From NCBI GenBank assembly GCA_951812955.1, contig OX638340.1:1088001-1152000 (forward strand): a stretch of 64,000 bases of DNA, in the 5' to 3' direction. The notes beneath the pieces are model-generated. The model worked only from the letters and a program-made list of their open reading frames with translations, was not told where the DNA came from and made no database searches. The first letter of the stretch is position 1, and every line of letters starts with the position of its first letter. The stretch comes from an uncultured Gemmatimonadota bacterium (GTDB lineage Bacteria > JAAXHH01). Below are positions 2,972-51,042 of this stretch, one piece after another. Both the position numbers and the translations under genes were made by a program.

Positions 2972-3982
2972 TCAGACCAGGTGGCACGCCGCCCTGTGGC
3001 CATTACCCTTGTCTTCCAGCGCGGGGACTTCGGTCTTGCATCGGGCTTCCGCCAGGGGGCACCGGGGATGGAAGGGACACCCCGGGGGAAGGTCGGCCGG
3101 GTTGGGCACGTCGCCCTTGAGGATGGTCCGGTCGCGTTCCAGCGTAGGGTCGGGCAGGGGCACGGCCGAGAGCAGGGCCGTGGTGTAAGGGTGAAGCGGC
3201 TTCGCGTAGAGCTGATCTCTTGTGGCCGTTTCCACGATTTTGCCGAGATACATGACGGCCACCCGGTCGCTGATATGCCGCACCACGCGAAGGTCGTGGG
3301 AAATGAAAAGATAGCTCAGTCGGAACCGTTCCTGCAGCACCTTGAGCAGGTTGATGATCTGTGCCTGGATCGATACGTCCAGCGCCGAGACCGGCTCGTC
3401 GGCAATGATCAGTTCAGGCTGGACGGCCAGGGCACGGGCAATGCCGATGCGTTGTCGCTGGCCGCCGCTGAACTCATGGGGATACCGGCGTACGTGCGCG
3501 GGATTCAGGCCCACCGTTTCGAGCAGGTCGGCCACGCGGTCTCCCGCTTCTCCCCGCGTACTCAATCCATGAACGGTAAGCGGTTCCCGGAGCAGGGAAC
3601 CCACGGTCATGCGGGGGTTGAGGGAGCCGTAGGGATCCTGGAATACGATCTGCATCTGGCGGCGGAGCCGCCGGAGATCGCCCTTCTTCATGGAGAAAAC
3701 TTCGTGCGGCCTTCGTTCCTGACCGTCCTCGAGTGCGGTATGGAAGGTGGCGGTTCCCGCGGACGGATCGATCAGGCGCATGATTGCCCGCCCTATCGTG
3801 GTCTTGCCGCACCCGCTTTCACCCACCAGGCCCAGCGTTTCGCCTCGCTGAAGCGAAAGATCTACGCCGTCTACGGCCTTGATCACCGTCCGGCGACGCC
3901 GCAGCAGTCCGCCTCCTACGGGGAAGTGTTTCTTCAGACCCTGTACCTCTAACAACAATTCAGTCGATTCCGTCATTTCCAC
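2972..3982 (-). CDS. ABC transporter ATP-binding protein (OppF/DppF-like)
   Basis: Walker [13 protein letters not shown] signature LSGGQRQR, C-terminal oligopeptide/dipeptide ATPase extension; likely GTG start. Confidence 0.85.
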
Positions 3983-4027
3983 ACTCCGTCATTTTCCCCA
4001 CTCGGTCACTTTTCCCACTCGGTCAGG
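3969..4027. repeat. 3-4 tandem degenerate 17-bp repeats (tccgtcattttcccac) in spacer between the two ABC ATPase genes
   Basis: read directly. Confidence 0.8.
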
Positions 4028-5012
4028 CCATATCCTTCTGCGAAACCCGCTGCCATTCGCCGCAGCGGACCACGTGGTGGCCTTCCACATCCAGCAACGC
4101 CTGCGGCCGATCGCAGACTTCCGCCGCGAAATCGCAGCGCGGCGCGAATCGGCATCCGGCAGGAAAGCGCACGGGGTCGGGTACCGTGCCCTCGATGGTC
4201 AAAAGTTCCTCGGTACTCGAACTCATGGTCGGCACGGACGCGAGCAACCCGCGGGTGTAGGGATGGCGGGGACTGCCGAATAACGTTTTGACGTCGGCCT
4301 GTTCCACGACCTGGCCCGCGTACATGACCAGTACCTCGTGCGCCATCTCGGCCACGATGCCCAGGTCATGGGTAATCAGCATCAGTCCCATGCCCAGTTC
4401 TTCCTGCAGACGGCGCAGCACATCGAGAATCTGTGCCTGAATCGTTACGTCCAATGCCGTCGTCGGTTCGTCGGCGATCAACAGCTTGGGATCGCAGGAG
4501 ATGGCCATGGCGATCATCGCGCGCTGGCGCATGCCACCGCTGAGTTCATGGGGATAGCTTCCGGCCCGTTCTTCCGGCAGTGGGATGTCGACCAGGTCCA
4601 ACAGCTCTACCGCCCGCCGCCAGGCCTCCTTCCGGTCCGCGCCCCGGTGAAGGCGGATAGCTTCGGCGATCTGTTCGCCGACAGTGAATACCGGGTTGAG
4701 GGAGGTCATCGGTTCCTGGAAGATCATGGCGATGTCGTTGCCCCGAATGTCCCGGATCTGGCGTGACGTGAGTTGCAGCAGGTCCCTGTCCTCGAAAAAC
4801 ACCTCGCCACCGGCGATGCGGCCGGGAGGTTGCGGGATCAAGCCCAGGATTGAATAAGCGGTCATGCTTTTGCCACATCCGGACTCTCCCACGATACCCA
4901 GCGTCTTGCCGGTCTCAACCTCGAAACTGACGCCGTCGACGGCCCGTACCACGCCGCTCTCGGTGTCGAAGTAAGTCTTCAGGTCGCAGACGCGCAGGAT
5001 TGTATTCGGCAT
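4023..5012 (-). CDS. ABC transporter ATP-binding protein (OppD/DppD-like)
   Basis: Walker A GESGCGKS, signature LSGGMRQR, 329 aa. Confidence 0.85.
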
Positions 5013-6112: not shown

Positions 6113-7414
6113 CTAACCCTGCAACTGGTCGAAAGTGATTCTTGGATCGACTACTTTGAGCAGTATGTCCGCCACCAGGATGCCCAGGAGCGAAAGCAGG
6201 GAGCCGATGGTGAAAATCGCCATGACCATGGGATAGTCCCTGTTCAGCACCGACTCGAATCCGAGCAGTCCCATACCGGGTATGGTGAATATCGTTTCGA
6301 TGAACACGGACCCCGCGATCAAGGCCGGTAGCAACCCGGCGGACGTGGTCACGATCGGTATCAGGGAATTGCGGTACACGTGGCGCAGGATGACGACTTT
6401 TTCCGAAAGTCCCTTTGCCCGGGCGGTCCGCACGTAGTCCTGACGCAGGTTCTCCAGCATGCTTGTCCGCATGAATCGCGAAATCGTCGCGAAACTGATA
6501 TAGGCAGAGGCCAGCACGGGCAGAAACATGTGGTACATGTGATCCGTGAGGATTCGCCAGGTACTCCAGTCGCCGGAGGCTTCGAGCGACTGTATGCCCG
6601 ATGCCGGAAACCAGTAGAAGAACTCCCGGTTGCATAGGAATATGATCAGCAGCATGCCCACCCAGAAAGAGGGCATGGACCAGAGGACGAAAGTACCGGT
6701 CGTCAGTGCCCTGTCCGTGAGGGTATTTTGCTTGACCGCGAGCCAGACACCGAGGGGCAGGCCGACCAGGTAAGCGATGATGATGGCAATGATGTTGATC
6801 TCGAGGGTGACGGGCAGCCGCTCCATGATCCGGCCGATGACGGGCTGGTTGTCCTTGAAGGAACGGCCGAAATCCAGCGTGACGAAACGGTATCCAGCGA
6901 GTTTTGCGAGTTCGATACCCGCGCCCCTGTAGGTGTAGTTGCCCTCGGCGCTGAAGGTCCTACCTTCCCAGAAAGAAGATTGCTCCAACTCGCTTGACTC
7001 CGCTGGCGCCAAATCCCGCACAAGAACAAGGAACCGTTCTTTCTGGTCCGCTCTGTCCAGTCCAGCCAGCGCCCGGCGTTCCGACGCCTCGAGCCGTTCC
7101 AGCAACCCGTCCGCCCGCATTGCGCTTCGGTCGAAGGCGCTGATGGATTCGACTTTCAGGAAAAGCGAAGTGACCCAGTTGAAGTACTGTACGTGGACAG
7201 GCTGGTCCAGGCCCAGTTGCCTGCGCAGTTCCTGCCGTGTCTTCTCGATATCCTGCTGGCGGTCGGAAGCGAGTCCCTCGCCGCCGGCCACGCCGCCGAG
7301 GAACAGGTCCACGGGATCGCCAGGGGCGAGGTGCATAATGAAGAAGGATATCACCGTGATCCCGACTAGCGTGGGGACCATGAGCAGTGAGCGTTGAAGG
7401 ATGTAACCGAGCAT
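6113..7414 (-). CDS. ABC transporter permease (OppB/DppB-like) with enlarged periplasmic loop
   Basis: N-terminal ILQRSLLMVPTLVGITVISF and C-terminal permease core; 433 aa is about 120 aa longer than typical due to an inserted hydrophilic loop. Confidence 0.8.
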   Translation of the reverse strand: MLGYILQRSLLMVPTLVGITVISFFIMHLAPGDPVDLFLGGVAGGEGLASDRQQDIEKTRQELRRQLGLDQPVHVQYFNWVTSLFLKVESISAFDRSAMRADGLLERLEASERRALAGLDRADQKERFLVLVRDLAPAESSELEQSSFWEGRTFSAEGNYTYRGAGIELAKLAGYRFVTLDFGRSFKDNQPVIGRIMERLPVTLEINIIAIIIAYLVGLPLGVWLAVKQNTLTDRALTTGTFVLWSMPSFWVGMLLIIFLCNREFFYWFPASGIQSLEASGDWSTWRILTDHMYHMFLPVLASAYISFATISRFMRTSMLENLRQDYVRTARAKGLSEKVVILRHVYRNSLIPIVTTSAGLLPALIAGSVFIETIFTIPGMGLLGFESVLNRDYPMVMAIFTIGSLLSLLGILVADILLKVVDPRITFDQLQG

Positions 7415-7490: not shown

Positions 7491-9350
7491 TTACTGATAC
7501 ATCCGGTCGGTGGGCTCTACCCACCATTCCTGGTTCACGGCGCCGGCCGGATACCAGTTTACGCCATGAAAGCGCCGGCTGTACGCACTGACGACGCGCG
7601 ATTTCCATAGAAAGGTATAGGGTTGTTCCTCGTGGAGGATCTCCTGGAAACGCCGATATAATTCAATCCGCCGGTCCATGTCGAAATCCGTCCGGTAGAC
7701 TTCGAGGATCCCATCGGATTCCTCGTTCCTGAAACTGACGAAGTTCGATCCATTCCCTTCGATCTGCGACGAATGCCAGATCTGGTAGGCATCCGGCGGG
7801 AAACGCAGACCCGTTCCGCCGCTCCAACCGAGCGTCACGGCAGCGAAATCCTTGTCCTTCACCCTTTCAAGGAATATGGACCAGTCCAATTCGCGGACCT
7901 GGCAATCGATGCCGAGGTCTTCCAGGGCGCTCTGAAGCGTCAGCGCGATGTCCTTCCTGAGCTGGTTTCCCGAATTGACGAGGAACTCGAAACGGAAGGG
8001 AATCCTTTCGCCGTCGATCTCCTTGTCGAGAATCCCGTCTTTGTCCGAATCCGACCATCCTGCCTCGTTCAGGAGAGACAGGGCCAGGTCCGGGTCGAAA
8101 GCGTAGGCTTGCAGGTCGTGATTGTATTCGGGCCGGAACTTGTGAATAGGACTTTCGACCGGCTCCGCGAGTCCAAAAAGCAGGTTGCGCACCATGGATT
8201 CGCGATCTGTAAGATGGGTCATCGCCTGTCTGACCCGCCGGTCCCGGAATATGGGATGGTCGTTGTTCCACCCGATATACGTGTAGCCGCCCGCGTACTG
8301 AATGCCCTTCATGAATCGGTCTGTGAAGCCGGGGGACCAGCTCTTCTCCTTGAACTCGAGGGGCTTCATCCCGTGGAGATCGAGGTTGCCGTTGGTCAGT
8401 TCGATGAAGGCGGCGTCCTGGTTGTTTATAATCTTGAAGACTACCTTGTCCACGTTTCCGGCGGGGGGGAGCCCGTCCACTTCCCGGCCCCAGTAGTTCT
8501 CGTTACGACTGAGTACCACCCGCTGTCCGGTGAGCACGTCATTCTCCCAGTCCGCCACGCCGTAGGGCCCCGAACCAAGCATGCGCCGGTTGAAGTCCTG
8601 GTTGAACCGTTCGCCGAATTGCCGTACCCGGTCCGCGTGTTCACCCGCTTCCCAGCTTCCGTCGATGAGGGTCCCGATCGGCACCGGATCCAGCAGGCCG
8701 TCCGGATCATAGAAGTGACGCGGAAGGATATCGAAGCTGCCGAGGAAGAGATCGTTCAGGATGTAGGGTTCCCTGCATTCGAAACTGATCTCGTAATCGC
8801 CCAGCTTCCTGACGTTGACGATCGACGCATAATAGTTACGGAGGTGAGGCGCCCGCACGGTCGGGGTCAGGATGGTCTTGATGCTGAAGAGCACGTCATC
8901 CGCCGTCAGGTGAACGCCGTCCGCAAAATGGACGTTCTCGCGCAGACGGAAGGTATAGGTGAGCTTGTCTTCCGATACGGTCGGATAGTCGACCGCGATA
9001 TATCCACGCTGGGTGTAGGGCGGATCGTAGTCCGGCTCCAGCAGGGATTCGAAGACGTAGGTGTGAACCTGCGTGGCGCCCTGGTCGCTCGACGTGTAAG
9101 GATTGAAGTTTTCGGGATCGGACAGTGCGTGGCGTACCATCCAGTCGCCGAACTCCGGTTCGTCCGTCCCTGCGTATTTCAGCTCCGCCTTCTCCGTTCC
9201 GTCCAGCACGACGATATCCCTCGATTCAGACAGGATCGCCTGAACCTTGTTCCAGGGATCTTCCGTCGTTTCGCCGCCGCCGCAGGCGAACTGCATGGCG
9301 AATAAACAAACCGCAACGGCCTTTGCCGCTGTACCCATAATCTTACGCAT
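7491..9350 (-). CDS. ABC transporter substrate-binding protein, family 5 (peptide/opine/nickel type), lipoprotein
   Basis: family-5 SBP architecture; start chosen at MRKIMG (ATG 9350) because GGAGG lies 9 nt upstream; signal peptide with lipobox-like FACGGG. Confidence 0.8.
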   Translation of the reverse strand: MRKIMGTAAKAVAVCLFAMQFACGGGETTEDPWNKVQAILSESRDIVVLDGTEKAELKYAGTDEPEFGDWMVRHALSDPENFNPYTSSDQGATQVHTYVFESLLEPDYDPPYTQRGYIAVDYPTVSEDKLTYTFRLRENVHFADGVHLTADDVLFSIKTILTPTVRAPHLRNYYASIVNVRKLGDYEISFECREPYILNDLFLGSFDILPRHFYDPDGLLDPVPIGTLIDGSWEAGEHADRVRQFGERFNQDFNRRMLGSGPYGVADWENDVLTGQRVVLSRNENYWGREVDGLPPAGNVDKVVFKIINNQDAAFIELTNGNLDLHGMKPLEFKEKSWSPGFTDRFMKGIQYAGGYTYIGWNNDHPIFRDRRVRQAMTHLTDRESMVRNLLFGLAEPVESPIHKFRPEYNHDLQAYAFDPDLALSLLNEAGWSDSDKDGILDKEIDGERIPFRFEFLVNSGNQLRKDIALTLQSALEDLGIDCQVRELDWSIFLERVKDKDFAAVTLGWSGGTGLRFPPDAYQIWHSSQIEGNGSNFVSFRNEESDGILEVYRTDFDMDRRIELYRRFQEILHEEQPYTFLWKSRVVSAYSRRFHGVNWYPAGAVNQEWWVEPTDRMYQ

Positions 9351-9421
9351 TTCGTCGTACCTCCAAGCGCTTCCAGTGCGCCATGAATTGTCCACTCACA
9401 GTCCGGTGAACTTCCGCTGGA

Positions 9422-10411
9422 CTACCTTCCCAGGCCCTTTTCCTCGAAATCCACCACGATCTTGATACATTCTCCCTTGCGTTTCGTGGCCATTTCGAAG
9501 CCTTCCTGGACCCTGGCGAAGGGCAGTTTATGAGAGATCATTGGCGAAACGTCGACGCGGCCCTCGCCAATCATGCGCATGGCGCTGGCAAAGTCGATAT
9601 GTATATCCGGTCCCACGGAAGTCGTCAGTTGCAGGTTCTTTCGAAAAAGTTCCATCATATCGACCGTGTACCGCGATGTCTTGGGCACGCCGAAGTTGAT
9701 GAACCGGGCATCCTGCCTGGCCAGTTGGACGCACAGGTTGAAGGTCTCCTCTATGCCCACGACTTCGATCACCGCGTCTGCCATACGCCCATCGGTGATC
9801 TCGTTCACGGCCTCCACCGGATCGGTACTCGCCGTGTTCACGGTGTGGGTCGCCCCCATCTCCTTCGCGGCGGCAAGCCGGTTGTCGTGCTGGTCTATAC
9901 CGATGATCAGTGCCGCGCCGAGGTTCCGCATCATGGCCGTGAAGAGCAGACCCATGGGACCCTGGCCGACTATTGCGACCTCCGCGTTGAACCAGTGGCC
10001 CAGTTTACGCAGGCAATATATCACGGTACCCAGGGGCTGGGCCATAAGCGACTGCTCCTGGGCCACACCTTCCGGCAGGGGGGTCACGGACGCGCCGAAT
10101 CCAAGGAAATACTCGGCCATGGCGCTCGAGCCGGAAGGCAGGGCCAGGACGAGGTCGCCTTCCCGGCATCCACGCGCCCACGATTTCTCGATGACGCCTA
10201 TACTCTCATGCAGGGATACGCCCGGGGTCGCGGGATAGTTTGCCGGGCCCGTAAACAACGGATGGTCGCTACCGCAAATGGCGGCGTTTACGGTTCGCAC
10301 GAGCACCATGTCCTTGAGCGCGTCCGGATTGGTGCGTTCCAGCGCGAGGTCCGGCCGTTCCGCTTCCACGATTTCGATGCGTTCCTGAGCGACCACCTGT
10401 CCCGCTTTCAT
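9422..10411 (-). CDS. Zn-dependent alcohol/polyol dehydrogenase (MDR family)
   Basis: CGSDH zinc-ligand motif, GQGPMGL Rossmann motif, 329 aa; embedded between two SBP genes. Confidence 0.8.
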   Translation of the reverse strand: MKAGQVVAQERIEIVEAERPDLALERTNPDALKDMVLVRTVNAAICGSDHPLFTGPANYPATPGVSLHESIGVIEKSWARGCREGDLVLALPSGSSAMAEYFLGFGASVTPLPEGVAQEQSLMAQPLGTVIYCLRKLGHWFNAEVAIVGQGPMGLLFTAMMRNLGAALIIGIDQHDNRLAAAKEMGATHTVNTASTDPVEAVNEITDGRMADAVIEVVGIEETFNLCVQLARQDARFINFGVPKTSRYTVDMMELFRKNLQLTTSVGPDIHIDFASAMRMIGEGRVDVSPMISHKLPFARVQEGFEMATKRKGECIKIVVDFEEKGLGR

Positions 10412-10427
10412 CGAATGTCCTTTCTGT

Positions 10428-10471
10428 CAACCGATTTGGCAAATCTCTGTCAACTGGTACGATAAATCCGG
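10428..10471. repeat. 2 tandem degenerate ~22-bp repeats (ctgtcaaccgatttggcaaat / ctgtcaactggtacgataaat) in 252-bp intra-operon spacer
   Basis: read directly. Confidence 0.6.
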
Positions 10472-10663
10472 GCGGCAGACGGGTGTGACCGCGTATGGTG
10501 CTTCCCGAACGATACCGAATTTCGTGATGGTGACGAAGAATCGGACCGGGCCGGGTGCGACCCGTCCACCCCCTGGATCCCTGGACCCGACGCATCTCCC
10601 TGAATGTACCCACACCTCGGGTATTGTCAAACCGAAATGGTCTCGGCGGCAGGGCCTGTGCCA

Positions 10664-12355
10664 CTACCGCCCGCCGTCTCCGATATAGATATCGAAATAG
10701 CCCGTGTTGTTGCCCCAGAAGGGGTATTCGCCGTCACGGTCCCGCTTGATGCCCTTGAGCCAGGGTTTACGCAGTGAAGCCTTCTTGCCGTAATACAGAA
10801 ATACGGCGCCAGCATCCTCGGAAAGGATCCGCTGTGCCTCGTCGTAGAGTTGAAATCGCCTGACCTCGTCCATCTCCGAAGCCGCTTCGTCCACGAGGCG
10901 GTCGAATGCAGCGTTTATCCAAGGGTGGCGGCTGTATCCGGCCGGCTGGGACCGCCAGACCATGGCGAGCATGTTGTTGGGATCCGGGTAGTCGTAGTGA
11001 TACTGAATCAGGCTGAAGGGGATCTTTCGCTGGTACTGGGCGGTCCGGTAGGAGATGTTCTCGACGACACGTATAGACATGTCGATGCCCAGGTGGGTCT
11101 TGAGCATCTCCTGAATGGCCTGGCCGACCTGCTGCCTGGCCATGTTGTTGATCCACATCTCGATCCGGGGGAACCCGCGTCCTTCCGGGTAACCCGCCTC
11201 CCGCAGGCGCAGTCTGGCCAGGTCCGGATCGAATCGCTGGATGTCCCTGTACTTGCCGCCGGCGTAGCCGGGAAATCCAGGCGGAAGCATGGAATAGGCG
11301 GGCTCGCCCAGGTCCTGAAGAAGCACCCTGCAGATAACCTGCCGGTCGATCGCGTGACTGATCGCCTGGCGCACCTTCAGATTGCCAAAAGGTGCATAGT
11401 CCGCGTTGAAGAAGAGGAAATGGGTCATGAAATCCTTGCTGACGTCCAGTTCCCCCGAAAGCCTCGGATGACTCTTGACGCGGGGAAGATCGATGGGGGT
11501 TACGTCCTGCATGTCGATCTCGTCGTTTTCGTAGGACAGCGTGCCGCCGGCCATCATTCGGGTATCCAGGAACTTGCCGACGATCCGTTCCACGTACCCT
11601 TTATGTGGACCGTTGTAGTTGGGATCCAGCACGAATTCGAATCGGGATCCGTGATCCCACGAATCCAGCTTGAAGGTGGAGTTGGTCACGAACCGGCCGG
11701 CCTCGGACCAACCCTGCCCGTATTTCTCCACCTGCCAGCGGGGCACCGGTACGGAGGTGGGAAAAGAGGCGATATAGGGGAGATAGGGACAGGGCAGCGT
11801 GGTACGAATTACCAGCGTGTGGTCATCGATGGCCTTCACGCCGACGGAATCCGCGTTCCGGGTCAATCCCTGGTTGAAGGCTTTAGCCCCTTCTATCTCG
11901 TAGTAAAAGGACGCGTTTCTGTTCGCGCTGGCCGGATCGACCATCCGCTTGAAGGCATATTCGAAATCGTGCGCGGTGACGGGTCTGCCGTCGCTCCACT
12001 TCGCGCCCCTGCGCAGATGGAAAGTCCAGCGCGTTCCGTCGGGAGATGGCTCCCATCGATCGGCCGCAGCCGGCAGCAACTCGTTATTGTGGTCAAGCCG
12101 GGTAAGGCCTTCGAAGGAAAACACCGCACCGGTGGCCTCGTAGACGGCGATCCCGATATCGAGCGTGGTGGGCTCGGGCAGGTGAAAGGAGAAAACCTGC
12201 CGCGCGAGGGGCGCCGCATCCAAAGGCATGGTCTTGCCGACCGCATTGACAGGCTGCGTGGCAGGTCCTGGATGGGCGGAATCGTCTTGTGCGAATTGAA
12301 GGACCGGAATAATGAGCAGGAGAATGCACAGAAGGAGGCCTGGATTCACACGCAC
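10664..12355 (-). CDS. ABC transporter substrate-binding protein, family 5 (second copy)
   Basis: signal peptide MRVNPGLLLCILLLIIPVLQFAQ, family-5 SBP sequence features, 563 aa. Confidence 0.85.
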   Translation of the reverse strand: MRVNPGLLLCILLLIIPVLQFAQDDSAHPGPATQPVNAVGKTMPLDAAPLARQVFSFHLPEPTTLDIGIAVYEATGAVFSFEGLTRLDHNNELLPAAADRWEPSPDGTRWTFHLRRGAKWSDGRPVTAHDFEYAFKRMVDPASANRNASFYYEIEGAKAFNQGLTRNADSVGVKAIDDHTLVIRTTLPCPYLPYIASFPTSVPVPRWQVEKYGQGWSEAGRFVTNSTFKLDSWDHGSRFEFVLDPNYNGPHKGYVERIVGKFLDTRMMAGGTLSYENDEIDMQDVTPIDLPRVKSHPRLSGELDVSKDFMTHFLFFNADYAPFGNLKVRQAISHAIDRQVICRVLLQDLGEPAYSMLPPGFPGYAGGKYRDIQRFDPDLARLRLREAGYPEGRGFPRIEMWINNMARQQVGQAIQEMLKTHLGIDMSIRVVENISYRTAQYQRKIPFSLIQYHYDYPDPNNMLAMVWRSQPAGYSRHPWINAAFDRLVDEAASEMDEVRRFQLYDEAQRILSEDAGAVFLYYGKKASLRKPWLKGIKRDRDGEYPFWGNNTGYFDIYIGDGGR

Positions 12356-18237: not shown

Positions 18238-18577
18238 CGGGTATAACAATAATCCGGTCTTGAAGGGAGAACGTTCATCCCGGGAAGACAAGGTCAGGCA
18301 CCACGAACGGCCAGGCACCCGGCCCGACCCGGTTACGTTAAGGGTCAGGGTATGACTGTCTCACCGTTCCAATCGAAGGGAAAGGACTGGTATAATCCAT
18401 CAGGTGCCAGTTGTAACCCGGAATTCCCGCCGTACCAGGTTGATCTGCTTTCCGCCTGCTCGCCTTAGGCACCTGTTTCACCCCATTCTCCCTGGCATGC
18501 AACCGCAAGTAACGCCTCCGTCAGCACAGCCGCTCTTAGCGACACCCAAAGACCTCAATTCATCCCTGTATACCGGA

Positions 18578-19744
18578 TTATGGAAGCGAAATTTCACCGT
18601 TCCAGTTCTTCGGGAAGGCCTGGTATTCAGCATGTGGATAAGACTGCGCGTCAACTCCTGTGCTTTCGGTGTCGTTCAGTCCATCGACAGAAACGGTAGC
18701 ATCCAAGCTGGCCAGATAGTCCAGCAATTCCCAAGCCGCCGATATGTTTACGCCGAAATTGTCGAGTGTATCTATGGACGCCAGGAACTCTTCTTCTTCC
18801 TCTTCCTCTTCTTCTTCGCCTTCACCTTCACCTTCTCCCTCACCTTCGCCTTCTCCCTCACCCTCTTCCTCCTCGTCGTCGGGAAAAGGGATGATCTGAT
18901 TGATCCCCGCGTGGTTTATCGCGATGATGTTACCCGCGTGATCGAAGACCGGGCTCCCGCTCGTTCCACCACGGGTGGCGAGGTTATAGTGGACCAGGTC
19001 CCCGGTGTTTATTGGGAAATCCAGAAAGGACGGATTATAGAACGGCCGAAGCGCACTGATCGTACCATCCTTGAAACTGGCGACCGGAAGAATAGCGTCG
19101 AAGATCCGAGGCAATCTCGGAAAGCCGAGGGTTCCAACGGGTTGCCCTGCACGCAGGTCATCGGTGTATTCTCTCGGCAGAAACGAAGGGGTAGCGTGGG
19201 AGATTTCGCCATTGATCCTGATCAAAGCGATATCCGCAGACATGACGGAACCATCGTATTCGGGGTGAAATACGTAAGGCGCCCACAAGTACGTTTCATC
19301 GCCGCCAATCAGGGTGCCCGTACGGGTGACGAACGGGATCGGGTTCAGTTCCACGATTTCCGGATCATTGATGAATTCCAAGACACCCTCGACCACGTGG
19401 GCATTGGTCCAGAGCTTGTCGGTGAAATACGCGCTGAAAGCGGTCCCGCCCGAAAAGGCTCCTTCGTCGGTCAACACACCGACAATGTAGATGGCATCCT
19501 GCAGATTGCCGCTCTCGATGACATCCGCCCAGTTGAGCGTCTCGCCGGGGACGCCCTGATCGCCCTTATCTCCCTGGGCTCCCTGGACGCCCTGGACGCC
19601 TTGGACGCCTTGAACACCCTGGGTTCCCTGGACGCCCTGGGCTCCCTGGACGCCCTGATCGCCCCGTGGACCCAGGGGACCCTGATCGCCCTTGCAGGCT
19701 ACCAGGACGAATGCAAATGCAAGTATCGTCGTTAACCTCGCCAT
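18578..19744 (-). CDS. lipoprotein: collagen-like (Gly-X-Y)n tract + trypsin-like (S1) serine peptidase domain + poly-Glu/Gly-Glu tract + C-terminal unknown domain
   Basis: signal/lipobox FVLVAC; 16 consecutive GXY triplets (GDQGPLGPRGDQGVQG...); protease His (WTNAHVV) and Ser (GGTSGSPVF) motifs; EEEEGEGEGEGEGEGEGEEEEEEEEEE tract; AGGGG SD before ATG 19744. Confidence 0.75.
   Translation of the reverse strand: MARLTTILAFAFVLVACKGDQGPLGPRGDQGVQGAQGVQGTQGVQGVQGVQGVQGAQGDKGDQGVPGETLNWADVIESGNLQDAIYIVGVLTDEGAFSGGTAFSAYFTDKLWTNAHVVEGVLEFINDPEIVELNPIPFVTRTGTLIGGDETYLWAPYVFHPEYDGSVMSADIALIRINGEISHATPSFLPREYTDDLRAGQPVGTLGFPRLPRIFDAILPVASFKDGTISALRPFYNPSFLDFPINTGDLVHYNLATRGGTSGSPVFDHAGNIIAINHAGINQIIPFPDDEEEEGEGEGEGEGEGEGEGEEEEEEEEEEFLASIDTLDNFGVNISAAWELLDYLASLDATVSVDGLNDTESTGVDAQSYPHAEYQAFPKNWNGEISLP
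18790..18880. repeat. trinucleotide (GAR)n coding microsatellite encoding the poly-Glu/Gly-Glu tract
   Basis: + strand reads ctt ctt ctt cct ctt cct ... tandem triplets. Confidence 0.8.
19556..19690. repeat. 9-bp periodic repeat encoding collagen-like GVQG/GAQG tract
   Basis: + strand ccctggacgcc units repeated ~12 times. Confidence 0.8.
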
Positions 19745-20006
19745 GTTCACCCCTTCTACAGAAGTTCCGCCACTCCGGCCGACTGTTCGGCATTTCATAT
19801 AAACTCCAAAGAATGAAGGATATTACATCAATACCCGGCTATTGCAAGGAATTACCACTTGTGTAACATAATCTGTTAGACACATGTCGGGTTCAGGGGA
19901 TAGATTGTCCTGAACCCATTTGCGATCAGGATTACGGCATACCTACTCGCCAGACGGCGGAACGCGGCTATGCCGGTCTAACCGGGACCTTTGCGAGGAA
20001 CTCACC

Positions 20007-45353: not shown

Positions 45354-45426
<73 letters not shown>

Positions 45427-50334: not shown

Positions 50335-51042
50335 ATGTTCAACCGAAAGAGTCTACACGCTGCGGTGTCCATCGGCCTGATGGCCCTGGTGCCGTCGCTG
50401 TTCACACTGGCCTGCGAGGGACCGGTTGGACCGACTGGACCGGCAGGAGCTCAGGGTCCGGCTGGACCGCAAGGCGCTGCCGGATCACAGGGACCGGTGG
50501 GCACGGACGGAAGTACTGGACTACAGGGGCCGGAAGGACCGCCTGGACCGCCTGGACCGCCTGGCGAGGTAAGAGTCATCGATCTGGACCTGGTCGGTTC
50601 GTGGCGATTCGAGAGCACGGATATCGTGCAGACCCTTGCGGAGAATCTCAAGGACTACCTGATCAACGAAGCCGGCCTCGATGCGGCTACCGTGGAACTC
50701 TTACTCGCCGAGTTCTTCAGGGAGATGACGGAGGATCTCAAGAACTCGCCGATTGCGACGGTTAACCTCGCCGCGGACGCCACCTTCCTGGACGGTGACG
50801 GCGCCTCGGGGACCTGGTCGGCCAACGGTTCGACGCTGCTTGTGAAACAGGACGAGACCGTTTTTTTCCTGGGAAGCTATCGCGTGGATGGCGACGATCT
50901 GACGCTGACGCTTTCCAAGGCCCAGATGCTGCAAATGATCACCAGCGCGTCGGAGGAACCACTCGCCGAAGACGAAATCATGCTGCTTGATATCCTGTTC
51001 GGCGAAAACGGTACGGCCAACTACTTCTTCAAGCGGGTTTGA
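50335..51042 (+). CDS. lipoprotein: collagen-like (Gly-X-Y)18 tract + lipocalin-like C-terminal domain
   Basis: lipobox LFTLAC then [19 protein letters not shown]...; GGAGAGG SD before ATG 50335; C-domain paralogous to 54296..54832. Confidence 0.65.

Follow-up and report, generated by a model that had tools for sequence, protein, structure and literature searches.

HtrA proteases act as trimers and one of them, DegS, is tethered to the membrane via its N-terminus. In animals, the acetylcholinesterase-ColQ, C1q-C1r/C1s and MBL-MASP systems place a serine hydrolase by means of a collagen triple-helical stalk, and in each case enzyme and collagen are distinct chains that assemble with one another. 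The collagen-like proteins described in bacteria are adhesins, spore or exosporium filaments, phage fibres and a component of an efflux pump, Bucl8 (PMC8968730). A literature search found no description of a bacterial protein that joins collagen to an S1 protease.

Here we analyse a gene from an uncultured Gemmatimonadota bacterium, found in a 64,000-nucleotide stretch of contig OX638340.1 (the window, by which we mean the whole of this stretch). We think there is a reasonable probability that its product is a serine endopeptidase anchored by lipid and carried on a collagen-like stalk, most probably arranged as a trimeric 'lollipop'. The likeness to the animal collagen-tailed hydrolases is an analogy in principle and, unlike them, the window protein has enzyme and collagen in one chain.

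The gene and its lipoprotein signal

The open reading frame occupies window positions 18578-19744 on the minus strand and consists of 388 codons followed by TAA, giving a 388-residue protein. An alternative upstream start at 19798 would lengthen it; we favour the ATG at 19744 because a Shine-Dalgarno-like motif, AGAAGGGG, lies upstream and homologues begin at the equivalent position. Exact-sequence look-ups of the protein with either start gave no match, and the genomic context was therefore drawn from a homologue, P0005. The plus strand has a 443-residue ORF (18404-19735), an antisense shadow of this repeat-rich gene.

Direct reading of the N-terminus points to a type II (lipoprotein) signal peptide with the lipobox L-V-A-C (residues 1-17; 19694..19744, minus strand). 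Signal and lipobox together are MARLTTILAFAFVLVAC, which fits the lipobox pattern [LVI][ASTVI][GAS]C; homologues have a lipobox-like N-terminus as well, and the predicted lipid-attachment site, Cys17, is invariant in an alignment of 90 sequences.

An earlier note on this DNA had proposed that a single ORF joins an S1 protease to a collagen-like tract behind an LVAC lipobox. This was borne out by Pfam, in which both the Collagen and the Trypsin_2 models exceed their curated cut-offs, by the 90-sequence alignment and by an AF2 model. The possibility also had to be considered that the ORF is an artefact, either a misassembly across repeats or a fragment of a phage tail fibre or defence system. 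The DNA is indeed repetitive, PHROGs tail-fibre families match residues 17-70, and PADLOC returns weak matches to protease-bearing defence models, yet the order of parts is identical in many independent assemblies, chromosome-scale contigs among them, and the gene order around it recurs at L001, the one neighbourhood examined. An artefact of this kind is scarcely credible; misassembly is ruled out and the gene is genuine. As to phage origin, the PHROGs matches are confined to the generic collagen repeat and the gene sits in a conserved, syntenic chromosomal neighbourhood of metabolic genes (an ORF-clustering survey, noisy in GC-rich DNA, served only to spot recurrent neighbours). A role in a defence system was similarly rejected, the PADLOC matches being weak, partial and restricted to the generic trypsin-like domain.

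The collagen-like stalk

The collagen-like tract (residues 19-69; 19538..19690, minus strand) is an unbroken run of Gly-X-Y triplets that starts two residues past the lipid-anchor cysteine and is recognised by Pfam Collagen PF01391 (E=1.8e-9; 37.7 bits against a cut-off of 27.2). It had been described as 16 uninterrupted triplets, which is right as to continuity and wrong as to number: there are 17, and 16 only if the final G-E-T is left out. As a triple helix the tract would measure ~14.6 nm. Its Y position is rich in glutamine and proline is low (3/34 X/Y positions). Hydroxyproline is generally absent from bacteria, and stability must therefore derive from glutamine, charged residues and end-tethering. 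Stalk and head meet at the junction motif LNWADVIE (residues 70-77; 19514..19537, minus strand), in which L70 and W72 are invariant in the alignments.

We also compared stalks across 164 family members. The C-x-G spacing, with the first glycine two residues past the cysteine, is found in 159 of them, and ~98% of the span from anchor to head is in Gly-X-Y register. The number of triplets lies between 4 and 94 (median 17), the longest stalks being those of L033 (94 triplets) and L052 (86), and the tract of orthologues is constant at 15-21 triplets. Distant relatives of the same head have the lipobox cysteine followed by ~90 heptad-rich residues and no collagen. In P0177, residues 20 to ~90 are predicted to be helical (pLDDT 61-89 in single-sequence AF2, with low confidence for the remainder), and a similar junction, 'DW...V...VYAV', is retained in relatives with an alpha-helical stalk. 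The heptad-rich stretch in the distant relatives thus appears to be a different rod module at the same position.

These observations bear on whether the Gly-X-Y tract forms a triple helix or is instead an extended, flexible low-complexity tether that holds a monomeric lipoprotein protease on a leash. AF2 gives the collagen region low confidence (pLDDT 50-53, single-chain model), a Pfam search of the 388-residue protein recognised no trimerisation domain, and the scarcity of proline, with no hydroxylase evident, would also suit a leash. A leash, however, would not require glycine at every third residue, and this register is kept in the 164 sequences whether the stalk has 4 triplets or 94. Furthermore, the register is fixed at both ends of the stalk, at C-x-G and at G-x-x-LNW, and the substitution of a helical, heptad-rich rod in relatives argues for an ordered rod and not a floppy linker. 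We consider a flexible tether unlikely and prefer the collagen-like triple helix.

In its unbroken Gly-X-Y repeats, presumably free of hydroxyproline, its combination of stalk and globular head and its envelope anchoring, the window protein resembles Scl1/Scl2, BclA, Lcl, Bucl8 and Pcl (PMC8968730). In contrast to these, it carries an enzyme where they have an adhesin or a structural domain, and whereas they are anchored by LPXTG, exosporium attachment or an outer-membrane barrel, here an N-terminal lipobox cysteine abuts the helix. NCBIfam models for Lcl, SclA and SclB scored 32-39 bits against cut-offs of 325-500, with only the repeat matched, which places the protein outside these families. 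A lipid-modified cysteine with a trimer-forming rod directly behind it is also the plan of Braun's lipoprotein Lpp, a trimeric coiled coil that acts as a spacer in the periplasm, and the distant relatives of the protease share with it a helical rod; Lpp differs in having no enzymatic head and in being alpha-helical rather than collagen, and the likeness we draw is one of layout.

The protease head

The head (residues 70-347; 18704..19537, minus strand) is predicted to be a chymotrypsin-fold S1 serine protease with an intact His116/Asp171/Ser262 triad, nearest to HtrA/Deg. Pfam Trypsin_2 PF13365 matches it with 50.5 bits against a cut-off of 27.6. All on the minus strand, the catalytic His116 (19397-19399) lies in the motif WTNAHVV, Asp171 (19232-19234) in SADIALI and Ser262 (18959-18961) in GGTSGSPVF. 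The earlier note had recognised an S1 core from the first and last of these motifs; both are present, Asp171 makes the triad complete by alignment, and the AF2 model of the protein (mean pLDDT 84.9) supports the fold. The three residues are invariant in 90 family sequences and align with the catalytic motifs of HtrA. The order His, Asp, Ser, the GxSGx motif and the two-beta-barrel chymotrypsin fold are as in peptidase family S1 and clan PA.

Searched against PDB sequences, the family profile matched Deg1 (2e-7) and PepD (4e-7), in an alignment that takes in all three catalytic motifs as well as the closing strand and helix of the fold. The likeness to HtrA/DegP/DegS/Deg proteases (MEROPS S1C) thus extends over the chymotrypsin fold, the motifs TNxHV, D[IV]A[LV] and GxSGx, and the last strand and helix, where 'FGIxVD..W' of the window protein aligns with HtrA 'FAIPVD'. 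However, identity to HtrA is just 15-23%, and the serine motif is GTSGSP where HtrA has GNSGGP. The window protein has a lipid anchor and collagen stalk in place of a signal or transmembrane segment, an enlarged L2 hairpin with an acidic insert and a conserved 41-residue C-terminal tail. Canonical HtrA has a PDZ domain, whereas neither Pfam nor NCBIfam gave a PDZ match in the window protein, in which just 41 residues follow the protease fold. The GxSGSPVF motif is in common with the V8/Esp glutamyl endopeptidases (MEROPS S1B), but sequence similarity is limited to this motif, the overall architecture is wholly different, and the window protein bears no sign of a propeptide or of activation at its N-terminus.

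The acidic loop and the C-terminal tail

In the chymotrypsin fold, the L2/220 loop makes up a wall of the substrate pocket. In the window protein the hairpin of this loop is enlarged according to AF2 and the profile alignment to PepD (residues 281-329; 18758..18904, minus strand), and its tip carries a 31-residue Glu/Gly tract, DDEEEEGEGEGEGEGEGEGEGEEEEEEEEEE, with a net charge of about -25, encoded by imperfect GAR/GGN repeats (residues 289-319; 18788..18880, minus strand). This tract had been taken for a separate module in front of a ~70-residue unknown C-terminal domain, a division that the model does not sustain. AF2 flanks the insert with strands 282-286 and 320-325, after which come the last barrel strand (329-333) and a helix (334-347), and the PepD alignment locates it in the HtrA L2 loop. 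Residues 320-347 are therefore the last strands and C-terminal helix of the protease fold, only 41 residues are left as an extra tail, and the acidic tract is best modelled as a low-complexity, lineage-specific expansion at the tip of the L2/220 beta-hairpin.

In orthologues the acidic run may be absent or as long as 45 residues, and it reaches 55 in an N-terminally truncated relative; the orthologue L2 loop, where parsable, is 27-74 residues long. Other paralogues have a Pro/Gly/Asp-rich insert at this position. The suggestion that both repeat tracts vary in length thus holds for the acidic run but not for the collagen tract, which stays steady among orthologues. Repeats are indeed present at the DNA level: Tandem Repeats Finder assigns periods of 3/6/12/18 to the acidic tract and 9/45 to the collagen tract. 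They are imperfect in both cases (76-84% matches; longest perfect tandem stretch 32-33 nt, period 18) and so, although they had been called slippage-prone, rapid slippage is not implied. We also considered autoinhibition by the poly-Glu run, either as a pseudosubstrate or by electrostatic plugging of a basic head, which is unlikely as the head without the loop already has a net charge of -23.

The tail (residues 348-388; 18581..18703, minus strand) consists of a variable linker followed by the conserved motif YPHxxYxPFPxNWNGET, in which at least 90% of sequences keep Y374, P378 and W381. AF2 gives the linker a pLDDT of 46-60 and the last 18 residues >90, and the motif is predicted to form a strand at 381-386. 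Beyond the gene, a tblastn match and translations reveal what is left of a second tandem paralogue that has been lost, a piece of its 3' end reading ...LYQSFPFDWNGETVIP then stop (18348..18413, minus strand); the loci L001, which is syntenic, and L005, which is orthologous, still have the second paralogue downstream.

Family and genomic setting

A search with the protease domain only returned 242 relatives, and most of the 120 listed combine PF01391 and PF13365 in 340-390 residues. By sequence, the window protein belongs to a small, conserved family of at least 164 members that share its architecture. The earlier note had called a protease on a collagen-like stalk unusual in bacteria; this is true of the literature searched, but less so of the sequence databases, in which this family is conserved.

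The closest members come from symbionts of marine sponges; those to which a published study gives names are MAGs of Aplysina aerophoba, APA_bin_41, and of Ircinia ramosa, IRC1_bin_16 and SB0665_bin_8. A published MAG survey reported no collagenase genes (PMC8163846). The sponge setting raises the alternative that the collagen-like tract serves mainly for mimicry of, or adhesion to, the collagen-rich sponge matrix or its receptors, with the protease as an effector on host proteins and stalk length of secondary importance. Known bacterial collagen-like proteins are mostly adhesins (PMC8968730), and further collagen-stalked lipoproteins with other heads occur in the window and in related genomes, both of which would agree with such a function. 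On the other hand, the available evidence contains no binding motif and no sign of host contact, some members apparently come from sediment or seawater (judged by MAG isolate names alone), and the fixed triplet number of orthologues, like the replacement by a helical rod in relatives, better matches a spacer. We regard a primarily host-directed role as improbable, although it is compatible with a collagen-stalked protease and does not exclude it.

Discussion

In the collagen-stalked protease that we favour, three chains would wind into a triple helix, nucleated and kept in register by three adjacent lipid anchors, by a trimeric HtrA-like head, or by both. The resulting rigid 'lollipop' would keep the protease heads ~15 nm off the membrane, and the length of the stalk, which stays at 15-21 triplets in orthologues and differs among paralogues between 4 and 94, would set their working height. 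Because the 86- and 94-triplet paralogues would reach ~74-80 nm, at least some family members are probably surface exposed.

The acidic loop would add about -25 beside the active-site cleft of an already acidic head. It is most likely a disordered polyanionic brush that favours cationic substrates or binds seawater cations, and an inhibitory plug seems less likely; the brush role is a guess from position and charge.

More tentatively, and with less confidence than in the lollipop itself, we hypothesize that the protein is part of a modular, lineage-specific envelope system of sponge-associated bacteria labelled Latescibacterota/Gemmatimonadota. Triple helices of collagen, lipid-anchored and of defined length, would rise directly from an acylated cysteine and carry interchangeable heads, possibly including the S1 protease, catalytically dead protease paralogues, a lipocalin-like domain and Ig-like repeats. 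Such a system might cover the membrane with layers of enzymes and binders, each at its set height, with stalk length serving as a molecular ruler. The collagen might in addition contact or imitate the host matrix.

The review of bacterial collagen-like proteins (PMC8968730) covers no type in which a single chain joins an enzyme to a collagen stalk with a lipid directly where the helix starts. The acidic loop clearly exemplifies a low-complexity tract that has expanded inside a functional loop of an enzyme instead of between two domains. Should the trimeric stalk prove real, the protein would be a bacterial single-chain counterpart to ColQ-acetylcholinesterase, or to C1q or MBL with their proteases, and a simple natural system in which to study how a triple helix nucleates when both hydroxyproline and a dedicated trimerisation domain are missing. 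A 'ruler' model would also become testable, because triplet numbers among paralogues run from 4 to 94 and relatives have a helical rod in place of collagen. Finally, the sponge-symbiont setting ties the protein to how symbionts interact with the collagen-rich matrix of their host.

A conserved family of collagen-stalked lipoprotein proteases

Positions 18578-19744 (-) of the window hold an intact ORF of 388 codons with a TAA stop. An alternative in-frame ATG at 19798 would lengthen the protein by 18 residues, however we prefer the 19744 start because it follows a Shine-Dalgarno-like motif (AGAAGGGG) and homologues start at the equivalent position. The N-terminus, MARLTTILAFAFVLVAC, leads through a lipobox to Cys17, and one residue later an uninterrupted run of 17 Gly-X-Y triplets begins (residues 19-69; 16 triplets if the last, G-E-T, is left out). 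WTNAHVV, SADIALI, GGTSGSPVF, the acidic tract DDEEEEGEGEGEGEGEGEGEGEEEEEEEEEE (289-319) and 69 further residues follow in that order. Pfam Trypsin_2 (E=4.8e-13, 50.5 bits, cut-off 27.6) and Collagen (E=1.8e-9, 37.7 bits, cut-off 27.2) both score above cut-off. On the opposite strand, at 18404-19735 (+), a 443-aa ORF overlaps the gene; it is probably a shadow ORF, a product of the repeat-rich and GC-rich coding sequence.

When just the protease domain was used as query, leaving out the collagen, 242 relatives came back; of the 120 listed, the majority span 340-390 aa with PF01391 and PF13365, and relatives from this search also have 13-33 Gly-X-Y triplets and a lipobox. Scanning a single genome from each species gave 110 relatives, with 79 loci retained. 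All come from uncultured MAGs that bear the label Gemmatimonadota, Longimicrobiales or 'Candidatus Latescibacterota'; a few relatives that lack collagen are found in Chloroflexota and Spirochaetia MAGs. Several genomes encode four or five paralogues (e.g. OZ241920.1, OY843748.1). The relative P0005, on a 3.87-Mb contig, shares the gene order of the window: sulfatase, PhyH, aldo-keto reductase, thiamine-binding protein, aminotransferase and the protease gene, and after it a small membrane protein, a metallo-beta-lactamase-fold protein, an amidohydrolase and COX3. The conserved family, with its many relatives built of matching parts, and this synteny therefore exclude an artefact of misassembly, and the shared gene order likewise excludes a mobile-element origin. 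The gene is real and its architecture conserved, which bears out the earlier note's outline of a lipobox, a collagen tract and an S1 protease.

In searches of PHROGs the protein matched only a generic collagen repeat, and in PADLOC only a generic protease domain. A profile of the head, run against 1.84 billion cluster representatives, found 126 at E<=1e-30 and 848 at E<=1e-10, and these profile comparisons place the protein in a small protease family set apart from mainstream HtrA proteases. Among the matches listed, relatives are named just 'serine protease' or 'trypsin-like peptidase domain-containing protein'. An Rfam scan of the window gave a single match, a tRNA gene at 45354-45426 (+).

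Among the nearest relatives by name are APA_bin_41, IRC1_bin_16 and SB0665_bin_8. The first two are MAGs of sponge symbionts, from Aplysina aerophoba and Ircinia ramosa, respectively, listed in the supplementary tables as class-less Latescibacterota in GTDB (Robbins et al. 2021, PMC8163846); SB0665_bin_8 appears there in the phylogeny only, with the prefix IRC_PAM, adjoining IRC1_bin_16. From similarity and synteny, the window bacterium is most likely a sponge-associated member of this Latescibacterota-labelled lineage.

The Gly-X-Y tract as a probable triple-helical stalk

We compared 164 family sequences having both the Cys and a collagen tract. Exactly one residue separates the Cys from the first Gly in 159 of these, the span from the anchor to the LNW junction is in Gly-X-Y register for a median of 98% of its residues, and the last Gly keeps a constant spacing to L70 and W72, both invariant. 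A strict Gly period along the full span with fixed registers at both ends fits the requirement of a triple helix. That the tract is instead a flexible tether on a monomeric protein is, in our judgement, improbable, since a floppy linker demands neither the periodicity nor the fixed ends. In the window protein Gln occupies Y in 12 of the 17 triplets and Pro is scarce; bacterial collagens rich in Gln are able to fold into stable triple helices.

The triplet count across the 164 sequences ranges from 4 to 94 (median 17), with 15-21 in the window gene's own orthologue group (identity >= about 55%). Reckoned at 0.286 nm per residue, a triple-helical stalk of 17 triplets would measure ~14.6 nm, and those of the paralogues at loci L033 (6001-7746, 94 triplets) and L052 (6001-7650, 86 triplets) ~74-80 nm. 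Stalks of 86-94 triplets would exceed the width of a periplasm, so at least these two paralogues are probably surface exposed. The collagen tract might also serve chiefly in host mimicry or adhesion; we think this unlikely, and it is compatible with the stalk reading.

Six distant relatives (P0175, P0177, P0185, P0191, P0220 and P0253) carry the same type of head behind a lipobox Cys, with ~90 heptad-rich residues in place of collagen, ending at 'DW...V...VYAV', a junction like LNWADVIE...AIYIVG. A single-sequence AF2 model of P0177, poor overall, was confident only for residues 20 to ~90, as long helices (pLDDT 61-89). Two different rod-forming modules would thus occupy one position between anchor and head, an independent hint that the stalk is a rod. 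Further relatives begin with dockerin-like or FHA-like N-terminal sequences.

A second lipoprotein of the same design lies at window positions 50335-51042 (+), where the signal ends ...SLFTLAC and is followed by one residue, 17 Gly-X-Y triplets and a ~158-aa head with a weak Lipocalin_4 match. Searching with this head alone gave 20 clusters (116-238 aa, all but two within 208-238 aa), of which 18 have a collagen domain. A third type, mostly 450-530 aa, combines a MYGC lipobox with a long collagen tract and Ig-like repeats of the Big_2 kind, and adjoins protease paralogues at L020, L027, L035-L037, L040, L043 (3754-5343), L044, L051, L054, L062, L064 and L069. At window positions 18348-18413 (-) we also found the final codons and stop of a tandem protease paralogue (...LYQSFPFDWNGETVIP*); this second paralogue persists downstream of the orthologue in the related loci L001 and L005, and the window lineage has therefore lost it by deletion. 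The L001 copy (9134-11062, +) has a very long collagen tract of ~1.1 kb, and its coding sequence is spread over several frames as assembled; either a frameshift introduced into the repeat by sequencing or assembly, or decay to a pseudogene, could account for this.

An S1 protease head with an acidic expansion in its L2 loop

In an alignment of 90 sequences C17, H116, D171, S262 and S264 are invariant, and S262 is taken as the nucleophile because it aligns to GNSGGP/GNSGSP. The AF2 model built from this alignment has a mean pLDDT of 84.9 and a pTM of 0.78, with pLDDT >90 across most of residues 70-290. Foldseek gave a mixed set of matches. Against PDB sequences the family profile found Deg1 (2e-7) and PepD (4e-7), aligning WTNAHV with TNxHV, SPDVAL with DVAV and GTSGSP with GNSGGP, and 'FGIRVDxxWxLID' with HtrA 'FAIPVDQAKRIAD', the last strand and closing helix of the protease domain. 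Pfam and NCBIfam detected no PDZ domain in the window protein. The head is an S1 protease, probably nearest to S1C, yet not a canonical HtrA.

Paralogues at L046 (~3845-4834), L051 (~6118-6996) and L062 (~6160-7059) have Arg for the catalytic His (WTNARVV) and, judging from this replacement, are probably inactive pseudoproteases on collagen stalks. In these three, and in several paralogues that keep the His (e.g. L040, L044, L054), the Ser motif is flanked by Arg or His (SGRTSGS, SGHTSGS).

In the AF2 model residues 289-319 (pLDDT ~65) have strands 282-286 and 320-325 on either side; the last barrel strand (329-333) and a C-terminal helix (334-347) with the invariant W338 come next. The acidic tract, previously read as a separate module, is therefore the tip of a hairpin inserted in a protease loop, which in the model corresponds to L2 of HtrA proteases, the 220 loop in chymotrypsin numbering. 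In the chymotrypsin fold this loop lines the S1 pocket. The supposed ~70-aa unknown C-terminal domain likewise includes the last strands and helix of the fold; the extension proper is just residues 348-388, a variable, low-confidence linker and then a conserved YPHxxYxPFPxNWNGET predicted as a strand (pLDDT >90).

All family members align with a ~20-residue hairpin at the L2 position. The acidic run at its tip has 31 residues in the window gene, 26-45 in the closest orthologues, 55 in the N-terminally truncated relative P0004 and 7-8 in the next clade (EEGEEEG, DEDEEDEE); most other members have none. In paralogues P0047 and P0095 the same site holds an insertion of ~35-45 residues rich in Pro, Gly and Asp, and the tip is thus a hotspot of low-complexity expansion. 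The length variation anticipated for both repeats is indeed seen in the acidic run (none to 45 residues) but not in the collagen tract, which keeps to its narrow range among orthologues. Nor does the label of (GAR)n microsatellite suit the DNA: Tandem Repeats Finder reports imperfect repeats in both tracts (76-84% matches), with a perfect stretch of 32-33 nt at most (period 18), and the tracts are therefore unlike the clean microsatellites of phase-variable genes.

The head has a net charge of -23 without the loop, which contributes ~-25. With a head this negative, a loop that plugs a basic surface electrostatically is disfavoured; the acidic loop would fit a disordered polyanionic brush next to the cleft.

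Relation to known systems and proposed arrangement

Like HtrA/DegS-type proteases the window protein would be membrane-tethered, but it lacks their PDZ domain. It resembles the Scl, BclA and Lcl 'lollipops' in look, however its head is an enzyme and its predicted anchor a lipid, and it scores far under the NCBIfam cut-offs of the Scl and Lcl-type collagen families. The animal collagen-borne hydrolases ColQ-acetylcholinesterase, C1q-C1r/C1s and MBL-MASP are analogous in principle, and the logic of anchor plus rod is that of Braun's lipoprotein. The architecture is undescribed: we found no account of a bacterial protein joining collagen and protease in a review of prokaryotic collagens (PMC8968730) or in the literature searched. 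It joins two known kinds, S1 protease and bacterial collagen-like protein, and is no new category.

From N- to C-terminus the protein has a lipoprotein signal, the collagen tract right next to the anchor, then an intact S1 head that lacks PDZ and bears the acidic expansion of L2, and lastly a conserved tail. We propose that three chains would join into a triple helix, its register kept by the adjacent lipid anchors and/or a trimeric HtrA-like head. The resulting lollipop would hold the protease ~15 nm off the membrane, at a height that may be set by the length of the stalk.
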